Of a DNA stretch of 64,000 nucleotides, positions 40,601-52,382 are shown piece after piece. The number at the start of each line of letters is the position of its first letter. Within the stretch, counting starts at the first letter, position 1. The stretch spans positions 320,001 to 384,000 of the forward strand of contig CBDFJF010000001.1 in NCBI GenBank assembly GCA_965248265.1, in the 5' to 3' direction. The notes beneath the pieces are model-generated. The model made no database searches and was not told the origin of the DNA. It was given only the letters and a program-made list of their open reading frames with translations. The position numbers and the translations under genes are program-made. Source of the stretch: Candidatus Latescibacterota bacterium (lineage in GTDB: Bacteria; Latescibacterota; UBA2968; UBA8231).

Positions 40601-40715
40601 GAAGTGGCATGGCGTCCACCTCCGTCAGGGTCAGTGGCAGCCAGTCGGCGACGGTCGCCCGCGCTGTCCTGCCAGCGGCGAGTCCCAGGATCCGTGGCTC
40701 AGTCTTGGGAGTCAT
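37620..40715 (-). CDS. FliG(N+M+ARM-C)::GAF-like::histidine kinase::receiver fusion (soluble hybrid kinase)
   Basis: [10 protein letters not shown]...[10 protein letters not shown]...[11 protein letters not shown]...[13 protein letters not shown] is Fli[26 protein letters not shown] and GGTGLGL mark the kinase. VADD...FMDIRMP...GKP is REC. Confidence 0.9.
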
Positions 40716-41791
40716 TGACGTTTCTCCTCACCCGCCGCGATCTCGACCGCGCTTTGCGCCAACCGAAAGCCGATGTGCTCGTTCGCATGGTCCTGCGGCG
40801 CGCTGTTGCGATGGATCGTCCTCACGTTGGGACGGGTCTCGGCATAAAAACCGCCCCGGATTACTCGCTCTTCGCCCGTGTCGGGTCCCTGTGGGTCCAG
40901 GTCAGGACTGTATGGGTAGTAGTTCGACTGGTAGAAGTCAGCGCACCACTCGTAGGCGTTGCCGGCCATGTCCCAGGCTCCGTATGGGCTACGGCCAAGG
41001 GGAAACTCATCGACCGGGGTTGTCGTGCCCACGAGATTGTTGGAATTACATCGTTCGCCATCGACGAAGTGATTCCCCCACGGGTAGAGGCGTCCGTCGT
41101 TGCCGCGGGCTGCCTTCTCCCATTCCGCTTCGGTCGGCAGACGTTTGCCGCGCCATCGGGCGTACTCATTCGCGTCTTCCCATGAGACGTTGACGACCGG
41201 ATGCCTCGACGTGCCCACGGGGTATGTTCCGTCGTGCCAGGCAGGCGGGGCGCGGTGTGAAGTGGCGTTCACGAACTCCTGGTAGCTGTGGTTGGTCACG
41301 GGATAGGCGTCGATGTAGTAGGGTGACATATCTAGTGTGTGAGTGGGTCGCTCGTTGTCCGGGCTGTCGCCTTCGTTGCTACCCATGACGAAGGAGCCGC
41401 CCGGAACGGCTACCATGCCCATCACGTCTTCCATCAATTCTGGTCCGCGCTCGATGGCTTCATAGGCGATGGTTTCGCGAAAGGCTCGAGTGATGCCAGA
41501 TGCCTCCGGCGCAGCGATCTGCTTGATCCTGCAACTGATCAGGTCGCTGCCGACGACGATGTCCCCATGGGCGAACAAGCGATCGTTTACTCGTACATCG
41601 TAGGATCGTCCTACGCGCTTGTTGAGCGTGATAAGGCCGCCGGGCTGCAGCTGCGCAAAAGCGTTCAGGCTCATCTGTAAGCGGCCGAGCTCGACCCTTA
41701 CTTCAAAGCGGATATCTCTGAGATGAGCCAGATTGCCGATTTCACGATCGACCATCTCTCTGGCGTCCGCTTCCGTAATCTTGCTGTTCAT
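40712..41791 (-). CDS. FliN/SPOA domain fused to a formylglycine-generating-enzyme-like (SUMF1) domain
   Basis: [12 protein letters not shown]...[22 protein letters not shown] is [46 protein letters not shown] and IGFR are FGE-like. Confidence 0.9.
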
Positions 41792-42093
41792 CAGACGGCC
41801 CCATCCCTTACGATTTCGGTTACGCGCACCCCGAAGTTCTCGTCTACGGTAACCACCTCTCCCCGCGCTCGGACTCTGCCGTTGAGCAGGATGTCGATCG
41901 GCTCGCCCACGGCTCGTTCAAGCTCGAACAGGGAACTGTCCCCAACCTGCAGCAGTTGATCCAGCGTACAGTTCGTTCGTCCCAGCTCGAAGGCAACGGT
42001 CACTTCCACATCGCGCGTGAAATCTTCGACCGCTGACTCCTCTTTCCGCGGGGGTTGTCTTTGCGTTGGAGTATGCTTGTCTTTGCCAGCCAT
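41791..42093 (-). CDS. fliN: Flagellar motor switch protein FliN-like
   Basis: DVEVTVAFELGRT...GEPIDILLNG...RGEVVTVDENFGVRVTEI. GGAG RBS. Confidence 0.9.
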   Translation of the reverse strand: MAGKDKHTPTQRQPPRKEESAVEDFTRDVEVTVAFELGRTNCTLDQLLQVGDSSLFELERAVGEPIDILLNGRVRARGEVVTVDENFGVRVTEIVRDGAV

Positions 42094-42128: not shown

Positions 42129-43094
42129 TCACTCGTTAGCGAGTGGCTGTAGCGCCTCGGGAATCTTCCCCACGGCTTTCACGGCGATGCGTCCGTTGTC
42201 CGTGGCGAACGGTCGCACGTAGAACTTGGGCAATCCTCCCACGCGCAGGATGAGAGGTTCGGTTGTCTGCGTGTCGCAGCAGATGATATCATCGACCTGC
42301 AGGCTGTCTACGTCGGCCAGGGGCAAACGCTTGCGCGCCATCTCGACGGTGAGCGGCAGTTTCACGGGGCCCAATGCAGCGCGGCTGCGCCGAGTCGCCT
42401 CCTCCTGTTCGCGGCGCCCACGGCGCACGTGGGTCTGCTGGCCAAGGAGCGGCAGGATCGACTCCAGGGTGAGGTAGGGGTAGCAGAGGCTCACCAGTCC
42501 GGATGCAAGGGGCGAATTCACCTCGAAACCGAGCACGACGACAATCTCGGCGGCGGCGGTCGTGTCCATGAACTCCGGGTTCGTTTCCAGTTCGATATCT
42601 GAGATTTCCACCGGCAGGATCGGGTGCCAGGTGTGCTCCAGATTCTCCACCACGCGCTTGACGAACTTGGCGATCACACCCATCTCGATCTGTGACATCT
42701 GTCGCTCATCGACGCCCTCCGACGAACCCTTCCCTCCGAACACGCGGTCGACGGCGGAAAAAACGAAAGGCATGGAAAAATCGAGAATGGCCTGGCCATT
42801 CGTCGGACCGAGCATGAACTGATAGGAACAGGACGGGTTTGACAAGGAGGTGATGAAATCAGCGTAGGTTTTCTGGGCAATGAAGGCTGTGTCAACGTCG
42901 ACGACGTCACGCATGGACGCGGAAAACGTCGAACTCAGCTGCCGCGCGAAGTGGTCATGTAAATTCTCCAGGGTGCGTAACTGATCCGTGTTGACCTGGG
43001 CGGGGTGCCTGAAATCGTAGGTAGCAACGATCCCATGCGATTCAGTTTCTGTCGGTGTACCATCGGTCACTGCTGTATTTGGAGTGTCACTCAT
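42129..43094 (-). CDS. fliM: Flagellar motor switch protein FliM-like, lacking the N-terminal CheY-binding peptide
   Basis: YDFRHP...LRTLENLHDHFAR, VDRVFGGKG, ETNPEF, LCYPYLTLE, C-terminal SPOA domain. Confidence 0.9.
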   Translation of the reverse strand: MSDTPNTAVTDGTPTETESHGIVATYDFRHPAQVNTDQLRTLENLHDHFARQLSSTFSASMRDVVDVDTAFIAQKTYADFITSLSNPSCSYQFMLGPTNGQAILDFSMPFVFSAVDRVFGGKGSSEGVDERQMSQIEMGVIAKFVKRVVENLEHTWHPILPVEISDIELETNPEFMDTTAAAEIVVVLGFEVNSPLASGLVSLCYPYLTLESILPLLGQQTHVRRGRREQEEATRRSRAALGPVKLPLTVEMARKRLPLADVDSLQVDDIICCDTQTTEPLILRVGGLPKFYVRPFATDNGRIAVKAVGKIPEALQPLANE

Positions 43095-44646
43095 GCCTTG
43101 CTCCTCCTGGCGTGGTTTCTGCAGCCGTCCTGTGCAAGTCCGCAGGGTCAACCTCGTTGCGCAACACCCGGTACAACCGGTTTCGGCTCGTTCCCAGCTG
43201 ACGCGCCGCCTTCGTCACGTTGCCATCGCTCTGCTGCATGGCCACGCCTACCACCCACTTCTCCGCGCACCGCACAGCCCGATCCAGGTCCAGCGGCAAG
43301 TCGGGAGCCCCCGGACTCCTGTCACCTGAATCTCCACCTTCGCCGTCCGTCGTCGCTCGCGGAACGCGCAAGAAGTGCAAGTGATGCGGCAGTACTTCAA
43401 CGCCCCCACTCTCGATCAAGGCGCGCTCCATGAGGTTTTTCAGCTCGCGCACGTTTCCCGGAAACCGATATCGTTGCAGAATTTCCACCGCATCCAAGCT
43501 GAGATCCGGTACCTCGCGCCCCATCTCTTCCGCGAACAGCTTGAGGAAGTGGCGCGCCAGAATCGGAATGTCCTCCGTGCGCTCTCGCAGCGGCGGTGAG
43601 GTGACCGTGAACCGCGCCAGCCGGTAGTACAGATCCTGCCGAAAGCTCTTCGCCTGGAGCCGCTGTTGCAGCTCGACGTTTGTCGCCGCCAGCACCCGCA
43701 CCGCCACCTTCTTCCCCTCGGTTGCTCCGATTCGCCACACAACGCCGTCCTCCAGAACCCGCAGTAGCTTGCTCTGCAGCTCCAGTGGCATGTCGGCGAT
43801 TTCGTCCAGAAACAGCGTGCCGCCGTCGGCGATCTCGAAGAATCCGAGCCGGTCGTCACTGGCACCTGTGAATGATCCCCGGTTATGTCCGAACAGGGCC
43901 GATTCGACAAGGTCCGCCGGAATGGCCGCGCAGTTTACGGGCACGAAGGGCCCATCCTGCCTTGCCCCACCGAAGTGGATGGCCCGTGCGATCAGCTCCT
44001 TGCCGGTTCCACTCTCACCAGTGATCAGCACCGAGGTCATCGGGCTGTCCTGCATCAGATGGATCTCTTTGAAGATTCTCTGGATGGTAGCGCTCTGTCC
44101 TACGAAATCCTCCAACCCCCAGCGTACAGCTTCGCGCTCGGAAATCATCGATAGACGTCCCTTGAGCGCCTTCCGCTGGACGATCTCAAGCTCCAGCTCT
44201 CGATTGGTCTCTGCGAGTGCCGCATTCTTCCTCTGCAGTTCCGTCGCCAGCCGGCTCAGTCGCACGTGCGTTTCGACTCGAGAGAGAACCTCCTCTTCCT
44301 GGAATGGCTTGGTGATGTAGTCGACCCCACCGGCCCTGAAACCGGCAATGACATCCTCTTTTCGGTCTCGGCCGGTCAGGAAGATGACGGGAATCCCGGC
44401 GGTCTCTTCAGTTTGCTTGAGCCGTCTGCACACTTCGTATCCATCCATCTCGGGCATGACCACATCCAGCAGTACGATGTCCGGCTGGCCCCGTACCGCT
44501 ATATGGAGAGCATTCTGTCCTCTGGTTGCTACCATTACGCTATTATTCGCTGCCTCGAGAAGCTCGAGGAGGACTTTGAGGTTCGTCGGATTGTCATCGA
44601 CAATGAGGATTCTCGCTCCCCGCGGAGTGGATTGTGGCTCAACCAT
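43087..44646 (-). CDS. NtrC-family sigma-54-dependent response regulator (REC, coiled coil, AAA+, Fis HTH)
   Basis: ILIVDD..LLDVVMP, GESGTGKE, GSFTGA, LFLDEI, FRQDLYYRL, PGNVRELKN, NVTKAARQLGTSR. GGAGGA RBS before ATG 44646. Confidence 0.94.
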   Translation of the reverse strand: MVEPQSTPRGARILIVDDNPTNLKVLLELLEAANNSVMVATRGQNALHIAVRGQPDIVLLDVVMPEMDGYEVCRRLKQTEETAGIPVIFLTGRDRKEDVIAGFRAGGVDYITKPFQEEEVLSRVETHVRLSRLATELQRKNAALAETNRELELEIVQRKALKGRLSMISEREAVRWGLEDFVGQSATIQRIFKEIHLMQDSPMTSVLITGESGTGKELIARAIHFGGARQDGPFVPVNCAAIPADLVESALFGHNRGSFTGASDDRLGFFEIADGGTLFLDEIADMPLELQSKLLRVLEDGVVWRIGATEGKKVAVRVLAATNVELQQRLQAKSFRQDLYYRLARFTVTSPPLRERTEDIPILARHFLKLFAEEMGREVPDLSLDAVEILQRYRFPGNVRELKNLMERALIESGGVEVLPHHLHFLRVPRATTDGEGGDSGDRSPGAPDLPLDLDRAVRCAEKWVVGVAMQQSDGNVTKAARQLGTSRNRLYRVLRNEVDPADLHRTAAETTPGGARHE

Positions 44647-44659
44647 CTTTATCCTCCAA

Positions 44660-44675
44660 TGCAATGCCTGTACCA
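44660..44675 (-). promoter_or_regulatory. Candidate sigma-54 -24/-12 promoter TGGTACAGGCATTGCA
   Basis: Correct GG-N10-GC spacing and near-consensus sequence. Caveat: the predicted start site falls only a few nt before the ATG. Confidence 0.55.
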
Positions 44676-44774
44676 ACTCGACTGGATGCTGGCTTTATAT
44701 ATTGTATTTAATTGAGTTATGACATTTTAAAAGGAGTTCGTATGCCCACTGGAATCGTACCGAATTCGTAGCAG

Positions 44775-49237: not shown

Positions 49238-49835
49238 ACCGCTGCACGCAATCGTCCCTCGGGTAAATGCCCTGCGCATTGCCGTACAGCAGGATCTCCT
49301 CACACCGCTGGACATCGGCCTCCGGGCCTCCGGTGACCAAGCCGTACCCGCTGGCGTGCTATGCTCCTCATTAAGGGACATCCTGGCACTGCCATACTAT
49401 CTCCTTTCAGTTATCACGCCTCTGCGGTAAACTCGTTCTAACCGGCAATTATCGGGAGTCTCCGCATTTCAGATTTCTATGGCAGCGCTCGAAACCTTGG
49501 GGCGTTTCTCTCAGTCTCAGCGTGAACACCGGTAATCGTCCTCATTATCCGTGGGGCACGACCCACGCCAGAGCACTACGCTCAGCTGCTCACCTCGATA
49601 CCTGCTGTCGGGCTGAGTAGGCGACTGTGGACGAGCTTCCCGAGCCCAATATATGGCGTAGTCATGGATGGATGGCACGATAGGTTGTGTGATCCTCCAG
49701 AGGTCTGTCCAAGGTCATCCTTGTCGGGATGAACGAGCTTGATGGAACAGTCACATCGGCGGTCACGTTGTGGGCCTGCCTACACGTTACCGGATCCTGA
49801 GGAGGAAGTACTCACCAGACAGCGAGGACCGAGGG

Positions 49836-52382
49836 ATGAAATGGACATTGGCAGCGGTAGCGTTGTTGATGGTGGGATGCGCGTGCTCGCCAGAGGCATC
49901 CGGGGCGGCTCCGGCGGACCGTCCGAGCGAGAACATTGCCTTGGGGGCGAGCTACACGATGGAGCCGGCGCCGAATTATGAGCATTGCACGGACGCCGCT
50001 GATGTCACGCAACTGACGGACGGGGTGTACCATCAAACGGAGGAAAGTCTCTGGACACAGCTGTCGACAGTGGGCTGGGCTAGAAAGAAGCCTGTGATCC
50101 TGACGCTGGACCTGGGTACGGTGAAGCCGATACGGGGTGTTTCGTTCCATACGGCGGCCGGTGTTGCGAACGCGAGGTGGCCGGAGGCGATCCTTATCTT
50201 CACGGCGGGTGAAGACAGGGAATTCCATGAGATCGGGGAGCTGGTGGGGTTGAGCGCGGCACACGGACCGCCCTTACCGACGGAGTATGGGACGTATGAG
50301 ACGCATTGGTACTGGACGGACCAGTTGCGGACGCACGGCCGCTATGTCTGCCTGGTTGTGTGGCCTGTGGGGCGGGTCGCGTTCGTGGACGAGATCGAGG
50401 TCTACGCGGGAGAGCCGGCGTGGGTGAATGAGCCGCTGCCGGGGCCGGGTTTTACGGACATGAAGGCGCATTCGGGCCAGCTCGCCATCCAGGCGGGGAT
50501 TCGGAGGCGCTTTGTGCAGGACATCCAGGCCCTGAGGAAGGCGGCCGAAGAGGACGGTGTCCCGGTCCAGACACGGCGCAACGTGCTTGGCGAGTTGGCG
50601 GCCGTGGAAGGGGAGTTGGGGCAGGCCTGCAGGGCGTACGGGGATGATTTCCGGGCCGTACTGCCGCTGAATTCATGGCATGAACGGGTGTTGCGTGCGC
50701 AGGCGTGGCTGTGGCGCGCCCAGGGTTTGGAGCCGCTCACGTTCTGGCGTTCGACTCTGTGGGATCCGCTTCCGCTCATCGGCATGCCGGACACGGCGGG
50801 GGAATTGGCCGTCGAGGTTCACCTGATGCGGAAGGAATACCGCGCGGCTGCGTTCAATGTCAGCAACAGCAGTGACGGGCCGATGCAGGTGAGGTTCCGG
50901 TTGAGCGGGCTTCCCGGGGGCGACAATCCGGGGTATGTGACTGTTCACGAGGTGGCCTGGACGGACACGCGGACCGGGGTGCCGGTGGCGGCGGCCCTGC
51001 CGGAGGTTTCTGCTGAGGACAATCTGTATACGGTGGCCGTGCCGTCGGGAATGACGCGGCAGGTGTGGTTGACCTTCCATCCGGTGGACGTTGAGCCGGG
51101 CGCGTATGAGGGCGAGGTCATCGTGGCGTCTGTGGCCGGGGGCAAGCGGTTTCCGCTGCGCATGCACCTGTATCCGCTGGATTTCCCGGAGAAGCAGTCG
51201 CTTCATCTGGGCGGATGGGACTATACGCATGAGATGGGCGGGTATCATACCAAGTTGGTGACGGAGCAGAACCAATCGCTGATCGTTCAGCACCTGCGCG
51301 AACGTTTCGTGGACTCGACGTGGGGTTCGCCTCGGCTGGTGAGTCCGTACTACGCGGATGTGCGGGGCACGTATGATGCGCAGGGGGCGACGACGGCGCC
51401 ACCCAACACGACCAAGTTTGATGCGTGGCTCGAGTTGTGGCCGGATGCAGCGCAATACCTCGTGTTCGTGAGAGTGGGCGATCGTTTCACGCATGCGGGC
51501 GACAAGTCCTTGGAGCCTCTCGACTCATGGGCCATGGGCACGCCGGAATTCGCGACGGCGGTGAAGGCATGGGTGACGTTCTGGGCGGGACATGCGGTGG
51601 AGAAGGGGTTGAAACCGGAACAGTTGGCGCTGCTGCTGGTGGATGAGCCTGATGAAGACCCGAAGCGGGACCATATCATTCTGGCGTGGGCGAAGGCTAT
51701 CCGGGAAGCGAATACGGGGGTCCGCATCTGGGAGAATCCGAACCACCGGGACATGAGCCAGGCCATGGAGGCGATGATAGATGCGTGCCATGTGTTGTGC
51801 CCGCACCTTGGTATCTTCCGGAATAGTAATACACCTATACGGCCTCCTGACGCGGCCCAGGAGTATCGCGACTATTACCTGAGGAAGCGCGATCAGGGGA
51901 TCGGGTTGGAGTTCTACAATGCTGATGGCCCGGCGCGGCTTCTGGATCCGTACGCGTATTACCGGCTTACGGGGTGGTGGTGTTGGCGCTATGGGGCGAC
52001 AGCGATGTACTTCTGGGCGTTGACCGACACGGGCGGTGCGTCATCGTGGAACGAGTATCTGACCGCGAAGATCGCGTACGCGCCTTTCTTCATCACGGAG
52101 GACTCGGTGACGGCTGGGAAACACCTGGAGGCGCAGCGGGAAGGGGTGGAGGATTACGAGTATTTCGCCATGTTGGATCGGGCGATCCGGGAGGCGTCTG
52201 CGCAGGGGGCGAGAGGTCCGGAGGTGGCGGAGGCGCGTCGGTTGCTGGAGAGCCTGCCGGCGAGTGTCTGTGAGGCGGCGGGCCAGGAGACCAATTGGCT
52301 GAGCGAGAACGTGGACCGCACGTTGGCGGACGAGGCGCGGATTCGGGTGTTGGCGGCGTTGACGAAACTGGCCGAGCGCTAG
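49836..52382 (+). CDS. Lipoprotein with discoidin/galactose-binding-like N-domain and GH123/DUF4091-like glycoside hydrolase region
   Basis: LMVG-C lipobox, NIALG.SY..QLTDG..LDLG, VDEP, C-terminal LEAQREGVEDYEY. Confidence 0.75.
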   Translation: MKWTLAAVALLMVGCACSPEASGAAPADRPSENIALGASYTMEPAPNYEHCTDAADVTQLTDGVYHQTEESLWTQLSTVGWARKKPVILTLDLGTVKPIRGVSFHTAAGVANARWPEAILIFTAGEDREFHEIGELVGLSAAHGPPLPTEYGTYETHWYWTDQLRTHGRYVCLVVWPVGRVAFVDEIEVYAGEPAWVNEPLPGPGFTDMKAHSGQLAIQAGIRRRFVQDIQALRKAAEEDGVPVQTRRNVLGELAAVEGELGQACRAYGDDFRAVLPLNSWHERVLRAQAWLWRAQGLEPLTFWRSTLWDPLPLIGMPDTAGELAVEVHLMRKEYRAAAFNVSNSSDGPMQVRFRLSGLPGGDNPGYVTVHEVAWTDTRTGVPVAAALPEVSAEDNLYTVAVPSGMTRQVWLTFHPVDVEPGAYEGEVIVASVAGGKRFPLRMHLYPLDFPEKQSLHLGGWDYTHEMGGYHTKLVTEQNQSLIVQHLRERFVDSTWGSPRLVSPYYADVRGTYDAQGATTAPPNTTKFDAWLELWPDAAQYLVFVRVGDRFTHAGDKSLEPLDSWAMGTPEFATAVKAWVTFWAGHAVEKGLKPEQLALLLVDEPDEDPKRDHIILAWAKAIREANTGVRIWENPNHRDMSQAMEAMIDACHVLCPHLGIFRNSNTPIRPPDAAQEYRDYYLRKRDQGIGLEFYNADGPARLLDPYAYYRLTGWWCWRYGATAMYFWALTDTGGASSWNEYLTAKIAYAPFFITEDSVTAGKHLEAQREGVEDYEYFAMLDRAIREASAQGARGPEVAEARRLLESLPASVCEAAGQETNWLSENVDRTLADEARIRVLAALTKLAER

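Follow-up and report, generated by a model that had tools for sequence, protein, structure and literature searches.

The window analysed here is a stretch of 64,000 nucleotides (nt) from a Candidatus Latescibacterota bacterium, and all coordinates given without a contig prefix refer to it. Its minus strand carries an operon of genes related to the flagellar switch proteins FliM, FliN and FliG. One of these genes encodes a FliN-family protein with a new accessory domain: a SPOA domain, typical of FliN, is followed by a domain with the fold of the formylglycine-generating enzyme (FGE), and the gene stands in an unusual, kinase-bearing switch cassette. To our knowledge, FliN, FliM and FliG are textbook parts of the flagellar rotor and switch, whose only known input, apart from a few brakes and clutches, is phosphorylated CheY; the output is rotation. 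Three departures from this scheme meet in one lineage-specific family: a FliN with an FGE module, a FliM without the CheY-binding peptide and a FliG in which the torque domain has been swapped for a histidine kinase. A search of openly accessible papers returned none joining FliN with an FGE domain or describing such cassettes.

Domain architecture of the fusion protein

The fusion gene and its parts are the following.

40712..41791, minus strand: FliN2::FGE fusion open reading frame (ORF), 359 amino acids (aa), ATG start, Pfam FliMN_C and FGE-sulfatase
41516..41725, minus strand: SPOA (FliMN_C) domain of class-2 FliN type, residues 23-92, Pfam 54.5 bits
41423..41515, minus strand: variable linker, residues 93-123, from alignment variation and a low predicted local distance difference test score (pLDDT)
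40757..41422, minus strand: FGE-sulfatase-fold domain, residues 124-345, from Pfam, Foldseek and pLDDT
40802..40867, minus strand: loop in place of the C-x4-C copper site, residues 309-330, from the alignment to 6muj/2q17

Both domains are recognised by Pfam. FliMN_C (PF01052) scores 54.5 bits over residues 23-92, where the cut-off is 23.8 (E 1.1e-14); FGE-sulfatase scores 214.5 bits over residues 124-345 (E 2.6e-63) and takes in positions 3-254 of the 255 in its profile. Ahead of the SPOA domain lies a conserved helix bearing an NLxHL motif, and the extension beyond the SPOA part amounts to 265 residues. When the protein is searched against the PDB, bacterial and human FGEs come out on top (6muj/2q17, E about 1e-43), and the N-terminal part matches FliN of T. 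maritima (1o6a/1yab), Salmonella and H. pylori (5xrw). An AlphaFold2 model built from 37 homologues reaches pLDDT 80-97 across the larger part of the FGE domain; in the monomer, SPOA and linker are modelled poorly, with pLDDT below 50 at residues 95-119, as would be expected of a domain that folds as an intertwined dimer. The best Foldseek match of the model is FGE 2q17 (E 6.5e-23, target-normalised template-modelling score 0.69, about 35-36% identity). PorK (9mzu) is matched as well (E 2.1e-14) and is also found by the PDB sequence search.

The fusion family is conserved but rare. Among the 120 best listed homologues in a collection of 5.8 billion proteins, 37 carry both Pfam domains, the window protein included, and these two-domain homologues are 44-64% identical across at least 90% of the length. 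Their alignment has 55 invariant columns; the SPOA core and the FGE domain are conserved, and the linker varies in both length and sequence. The few source names given on these homologues are Candidatus Handelsmanbacteria, Latescibacterota and Dehalococcoidia metagenome-assembled genomes (MAGs). A chimeric assembly or a pseudogene was considered as an explanation of the gene and rejected in view of the 37 conserved two-domain homologues. A profile search of 1.84 billion representatives is unfit for counting fusions: the FGE superfamily gives 256,086 matches there at E up to 0.001, the best 150 are mostly giant multi-FGE proteins, and at least two full-length fusion representatives (P0018, P0101) are among them.

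The preliminary description of this DNA, made from its letters alone, had proposed a SPOA domain joined to a complete FGE-fold domain. This holds in every respect, by Pfam as well as by AlphaFold2 and Foldseek, and the combination of FliMN_C with FGE-sulfatase recurs in the 37 homologues counted above.

The FGE domain and the missing cysteine pair

In the HMMER alignment, GGSYLCHDSYCN of the S. coelicolor FGE (6muj/2q17) is aligned with a segment of the fusion that has neither of the copper-binding cysteines; the catalytic Cys positions face alanine or a gap and proline. The C-x4-C pair is absent from all 37 aligned fusion proteins. In the loop that replaces it, R312 and R328 are invariant and R320 is nearly so. 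The DMxGNxxEW motif, which we take to be the Ca site of FGE, is kept in the family. The protein stretch quoted in the preliminary description as lacking the Cys pair is present at residues 309-324, and the absence of the pair is confirmed both by the alignment to the solved enzyme and throughout the fusions. Identity as a true FGE was considered and rejected because the copper-binding pair is missing.

No curated family claims the domain, since its scores with the GldK, EgtB, SenA and PvdO models stay well under the respective cut-offs. The EgtB model (TIGR03440) gives 112.5 bits against a cut-off of 360 and is matched only at positions 272-413, its C-terminal part; the PorK/GldK model (TIGR03525) gives 118.1 bits against 350. 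The FliY model (PRK08119) reaches 41 bits against 218, matching the SPOA part alone. The Cys-less FGE-fold domain of the fusion is probably non-catalytic.

Two classes of FliN and the modelled pairing of SPOA domains

The tree of SPOA domains separates a group of FliM C-terminal domains (100 in the Shimodaira-Hasegawa-like approximate likelihood ratio test, SH-aLRT), a class-1 FliN clade (SH-aLRT 99) and a remainder. The class-1 clade is made up of the canonical FliN and the first FliN of every cassette. In the remainder are found the second FliN of the cassettes, solo FliN proteins of about 150-220 aa with an acidic N-terminal extension, and the fusions, 13 of whose 14 SPOA domains group together, with weak support (86). 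The fusion thus lies outside the clade that holds the FliN of the flagellar operon (SH-aLRT 99), and it scores 56.1 bits with the canonical FliN equivalog TIGR02480, below the cut-off of 84.05. Because class-2 FliN holds the same slot elsewhere, the fusion can be regarded as the cassette's second FliN with a domain added. The preliminary description had spoken of a second FliN beside an ordinary one, and both the neighbouring FliN1 gene and the SPOA tree agree with it.

Records whose titles name Latescibacterota, Gemmatimonadota (Gemmatimonas phototrophica among them) or, in one case, a Planctomycetota MAG contain class-2 FliN. A search with a five-row SPOA alignment returned 18 class-2 loci, three of them FliN1-FliN2-FliG-FliM cassettes; FGE domains are absent from all 18, and since only unfused class-2 FliN loci came back, this search is uninformative on the spread of the fusion. 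When the SPOA part (residues 1-110) was used by itself in a word-based search, the query was the sole match. In the 76 genomes of the window's family, the long open frames on class-2 SPOA matches are the FGE fusions, one frame of 319 aa and one of 935 aa with a FliM match.

The pairing of the fusion's SPOA domain with that of FliN1, for which the preliminary description had suggested modelling the heterodimer, was modelled with residues 20-100 of FliN1 and residues 1-100 of the fusion, with an alignment for each. The interface score ipSAE is 0.78 against 0.00 for the best of three controls, and the mark used is reached by 116 of 157 solved complexes and by two of 215 mismatched pairs. At least 97% of contacts are shared between the runs, the partner has a pLDDT of at least 79, and the modelled interface spans nearly the whole SPOA core of both chains. 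Pairing with the neighbouring FliN1 is therefore plausible by this model, whose pass may reflect likeness to the solved SPOA dimers of FliN and FliM.

The operon around the fusion gene

The other genes of the operon are the following.

43087..44676, minus strand: NtrC-type response regulator (REC, sigma54 AAA+, HTH_8; Pfam), first gene of the operon
42129..43094, minus strand: FliM paralog (FliM middle domain and SPOA), probable ATG at 43094
41791..42093, minus strand: FliN1, canonical-type SPOA protein of 100 aa, Pfam 71.5 bits, NCBIfam fliN 81.4 bits
37620..40715, minus strand: FliG(N,M)::HisKA-HATPase_c::REC, 1031 aa (Pfam)

Read along the minus strand, the order is response regulator, FliM, FliN1, FliN::FGE and FliG(N,M) fused to a histidine kinase and a receiver (FliG::HK). 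The ATG of FliM lies behind an AGGAGG site and overlaps the stop of the regulator by 8 nt; the spacer between FliM and FliN1 is 35 nt long with a GGAG site; the stop of FliN1 and the ATG of the fusion share one base (TGATG), and the stop of the fusion overlaps the ATG of FliG::HK by 4 nt (ATGA). Because the junctions are so tight, co-translation of the operon genes is suggested. No sulfatase gene is present in the operon.

The FliG part of FliG::HK matches the fliG equivalog at model positions 7-235 of 338 only, so the protein is devoid of the torque-generating C domain. The motifs EHPQ in FliG::HK and GGKG in the operon FliM, presumably those of the contact between FliG-M and FliM, are both kept. 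The FliM of the window begins directly at the middle domain, without the CheY-binding N-terminal peptide. The canonical FliM of the same genome starts with MGDILSQDEIDALL, a CheY-binding peptide of the LSQxEIDALL type. In FliG::HK, a stretch of about 180 aa before the kinase has no Pfam assignment and looks GAF-like by eye.

The FliG(N,M)::HK::REC architecture was found in 18 clusters of a large protein collection. Five of these match a FliN::FGE cluster in the size of the longest source contig (3178793, 83263, 822005, 8071 and 35018).

Switch genes elsewhere in the same genome

The genome that contains the window (G000) consists of two contigs, C1 and C2, totalling 7.3 Mb, with 15 SPOA matches, one FlhA, one full FliF and about 9 full-length FliG-like genes. 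Its flagellar cluster is located on C2 at 4.10-4.12 Mb and comprises FliM, a FliN of 192 aa, FliO, FliP, FliR, FlhB and FlhA, together with FliE, FliF, FliH, FliI and FliJ. The fusion cassette is on C1, apart from these export and basal-body genes.

Two orphan cassettes on C2 resemble that of the window. One of them (L011, C2:1677730-1681347) encodes an extracytoplasmic function (ECF) sigma factor, a zf-HC2 anti-sigma factor, FliN1, FliN2 (89 aa), FliG(N,M) and FliM; the other (L014, C2:272854-275757) encodes FliN1, FliN2 (106 aa), a full-length FliG and FliM. In both, FliM is devoid of the CheY-binding N-terminus and the class-2 FliN carries no FGE domain. Since the FliMs of the sister cassettes also start at the middle domain, independence of FliM from CheY seems to be common to all orphan cassettes, whether or not they carry FGE.

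Six solo full-length FliG genes (N, M and C domains) are scattered over the genome in unrelated neighbourhoods (C1:265655, 384407, 710504, 1502207 and 1704221; C2:750864), and five of them are 72-77% identical to each other. The one at C1:384407 (L053:404-1618) lies 1.1 kb beyond the end of the window. Besides, the order in the flagellar cluster is FliE-FliF-FliH-FliI-FliJ, with no fliG between fliF and fliH.

Fusion cassettes in other genomes and their probable link to the flagellum

Among 168 genomes of the phylum, a profile search located a full-length fusion in five (G000, G094, G095, G096 and G120), the copy of G096 having two in-frame stops. G150 is a sixth fusion genome, with the SPOA and FGE matches in a single open frame of 431 aa, and all six belong to the family of the window. 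In G094 the order is the same as in the window: FliM, FliN, FliN::FGE, FliG(N,M)::HisKA and then REC. A short contig of G120 carries FliM, FliN and the fusion. The cassette of G095 is built of an ECF sigma factor, a likely anti-sigma factor, FliN, FliN::FGE, a full-length FliG and, where FliM is matched, an ORF of 333 aa. In G094 a REC-SpoIIE (PP2C-type) response regulator comes after FliG::HK (L046:11737-12981), and no such gene comes after it in the window.

Among the 76 genomes of the family, FlhA was found in 31, FliM in 33 and SPOA in 35. FlhA is present in 29 of the 33 FliM-positive genomes and in all six fusion genomes. The four FliM-positive genomes without FlhA are drafts, 76-92% complete, one of which (G113) has FliF and FliP, and the closed genomes of the family that are non-flagellate have neither FliM nor SPOA. 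The co-distribution of FliM and SPOA with FlhA favours a function tied to the flagellum.

Related to this, G158 (96% complete) has FliG-like genes, with no FlhA or FliP found and a weak, partial YscJ/FliF match (27 bits). This genome and G161, described below, could contain switch paralogs that have outlived the flagellum, or assembly gaps. Apparent FliG-FliM fusions, composed of FliG (N, M, C), FliM and SPOA, also occur: P0139, P0140, an open frame of 935 aa (G157:C15) and two frames of 721 and 828 aa (G161:C8).

Membrane-anchored relatives of the FGE domain

The nearest FGE-only proteins are 66-68% identical to the FGE domain of the fusion. These paralogs (about 300-340 aa) have a short N-terminus, a hydrophobic helix followed by NKPSKK, some 60 heptad-like charged residues and the FGE domain, and such transmembrane (TM)-coiled-coil-FGE proteins come from MAGs labelled Latescibacterota or Gemmatimonadota. 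Four of them are encoded in the genome of the window.

C1:3019376, C2:2000477, C2:2250036 and C2:4047491: Cys-less TM-coiled-coil-FGE paralogs (L049-L052), 312-325 aa; the longest open frame of L049 is 351 aa

In the tree of FGE domains, 36 fusions and 45 TM-coiled-coil-FGE proteins constitute one clade (SH-aLRT 98), from which FGE proteins of 470-630 aa are separate. Because both kinds share this clade, the same FGE module seems to be tethered either to the membrane or to SPOA. The fusions do not form a single branch within the clade, where the starred branches force at least four changes, and a remnant of the coiled coil is kept before the FGE domain in fusion P0058 and in that of G094. Because the domain is shared and has to lie in the cytoplasm in the SPOA form, a C-terminus inside the cell is probable for the membrane-anchored form as well, as the charge also suggests. 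No partner gene is common to the neighbourhoods of the four paralogs and none of the neighbours is flagellar; one of these paralogs directly adjoins a sulfatase gene.

Comparison with known systems

A close parallel in architecture is FliY, known in a Bacillus/Thermotoga type and, paired with FliN, in Helicobacter; it is also a SPOA protein bearing an accessory domain onto the switch complex beside a plain FliN and FliM. The extra domain of FliY is a CheC-like phosphatase, N-terminal to SPOA, which acts on phosphorylated CheY. In the fusion, however, the extra domain is C-terminal and has the FGE fold, Pfam finds no phosphatase domain of the CheC/CheX type, and the cassette has no link to CheY. 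With canonical FliN the fusion has in common that it passes the FliMN_C threshold, that fliM is nearby and that a SPOA dimer is modelled, whereas it differs in standing outside the class-1 clade, in its 265-residue extension and in not belonging to the flagellar operon.

The fold of the FGEs from S. coelicolor (2q17/6muj), T. curvata (6s07) and human (1y1e) is retained over the whole domain, but the copper-binding cysteines and the sulfatase partner are not, and the fusion is cytoplasmic, with a SPOA domain at the N-terminus instead of a signal peptide. True FGEs act on sulfatases outside the cytoplasm. EgtB and OvoA have an iron-binding DinB-type N-domain which the fusion lacks. With respect to the TM-coiled-coil-FGE proteins, the difference is the anchor, a membrane helix instead of SPOA.

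The preliminary description had stated that non-catalytic FGE folds serve as binding modules, and a solved precedent exists: according to PMC12421860, PorK has an FGE-like fold without the two cysteines and is a docking hub in the ring of the type IX secretion system. PorK/GldK resembles the fusion in that a Cys-less FGE fold has been put to a structural use, here for docking within a large ring that is coupled to a rotary motor. It differs in that PorK is a periplasmic lipoprotein with large insertions, and both its machine and its compartment are unrelated to those of the fusion.

Proposed function and alternative explanations

Of the readings considered here, the likeliest, and one that is quite possible, is that the SPOA domain anchors a docking or ligand-binding FGE module on an accessory, CheY-independent assembly of FliM, FliN and FliG proteins, with phosphorelay instead of rotation as its output. 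The SPOA domain of the fusion would form the usual intertwined dimer with FliN1, with the C-terminal SPOA of FliM or with both, so that each SPOA unit would put one FGE module on the side of the assembly that faces the cytoplasm. This assembly would dock via FliG-N at the membrane and supramembrane (MS) ring of the flagellum, or form beside it. The FGE domain would offer a docking or ligand-binding surface, like the repurposed fold of PorK, and the kinase fused to FliG would feed a phosphorelay, its target probably being the sigma54 activator whose gene opens the operon, with no torque and no clockwise or counterclockwise switching.

The preliminary description had gone further, proposing that the protein loads a binding domain onto the ring and may be the input sensor that replaces CheY. 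Its account of the architecture, the loss of the cysteines, the second FliN and the plausible pairing stands. The mention of "the ring" calls for a change: the cassette stands apart from the flagellar operon, so what is loaded may be an accessory assembly instead of the working cytoplasmic (C) ring. The lack of the CheY-binding peptide in the operon FliM agrees with the CheY-independence that had been suggested. Replacement of CheY by the FGE domain is a possible special case, weakened by three observations. Besides the separate location of the cassette, the sister cassettes without the CheY motif are also without FGE, so that FGE is not a necessary replacement for CheY; and the operon FliG has HisKA-HATPase-REC in place of the torque C domain, so that the output is likely a phosphorelay and not the switching of rotation. 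A stronger form, which we judge decidedly unlikely, is a sensory platform derived from the rotor and assembled at or beside the MS ring, in which an array of FGE domains senses a cytoplasmic ligand, a partner protein or the state of the flagellar base and gates the FliG-fused kinase, which in turn acts on the sigma54 activator. The switch complex would then work in reverse: FGE would do the sensing, and the complex would supply input to gene regulation.

Several facts weigh against an anchored docking module on a kinase-bearing assembly, and some of them lend strength to other explanations. The sister cassettes work without FGE, and the kinase is a frequent, not an obligatory, partner of the fusion, as the different cassette of G095 demonstrates. 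The complex model may owe its pass to SPOA dimers that were solved before, and it leaves the choice of partner between FliN1 and the FliM C-terminal domain undecided. The strong constraint on the FGE domain, with its invariant loop arginines, would suit an enzyme or a specific ligand site no less than a docking surface. An enzyme of the SUMF1/EgtB/PvdO superfamily with other chemistry, whose activity SPOA would localise to the switch assembly or the flagellar base for the modification of some protein or small molecule, is nevertheless unlikely. It would account for the high conservation, including R312, R328 and R320, and for the identity of 66-68% to the membrane-anchored paralogs, one of which adjoins a sulfatase gene, and it has parallels in solved Cys-less relatives with proposed enzymatic roles (PvdO, ToxD, CalU17 and the C-domain of EgtB). 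However, the copper-binding pair is absent, and so is the DinB-type N-domain of EgtB and OvoA, scores being far below the cut-offs (112 vs 360 bits), and no conserved substrate gene lies beside the fusion or the four paralogs.

The remaining point against the proposal comes from G161. This genome is 92% complete and has three FliM, many FliG and five SPOA matches, and no FlhA, FliF or FliP was found in it, which hints that such cassettes might survive without a flagellum. The whole cassette could then be a flagellum-independent cytoplasmic signalling scaffold that never joins the basal body, FGE being its sensor or adaptor. G161 speaks for it, together with the location of the cassette on another contig than the flagellar genes, a FliG without torque domain, a FliM without CheY motif and about 9 full-length FliG-like genes against one FliF and one FlhA. 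Such a scaffold is still rather unlikely, given that FliG-N, the domain that binds FliF, is retained, that FlhA accompanies FliM in 29 of 33 genomes and the fusion in six of six, with exceptions confined to drafts 76-92% complete, and that closed non-flagellate genomes are without the cassette. On the other hand, the parts might build an alternative working rotor that is swapped into the motor under sigma54 or ECF control, with FGE serving on the C ring as a bulky brake, a clutch or a modulator of the export gate. The several FliM/FliN/FliG sets per genome that stand beside regulators (an ECF sigma and anti-sigma factor, or a sigma54 activator) and the full-length FliG with its C domain that accompanies the fusion of G095 are consistent with this, but a ring built solely of the window FliG, which has no torque domain, cannot drive rotation, and we consider the idea highly improbable.

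If the parts assemble as modelled, these would be the first switch-complex proteins used as a two-component signalling scaffold, and the FGE fold would have been recruited into a ring machine for a second time, independently of PorK. The fusion also offers a starting point for working out the function of the membrane-anchored Cys-less FGE proteins, a large group, and recombinant proteins provide a route to tests even though the host is uncultured.

Other features of the window

The scan for promoters and terminators was at background level (3 found vs 2.1 expected and 7 vs 6.3, respectively), and the ORFs downstream of 37620 have no Pfam match. GC skew is at most 0.1 in every 2-kb bin of the window except 50001-52000, where it reaches 0.207; this bin falls inside a plus-strand ORF of 870 aa (49770-52382).

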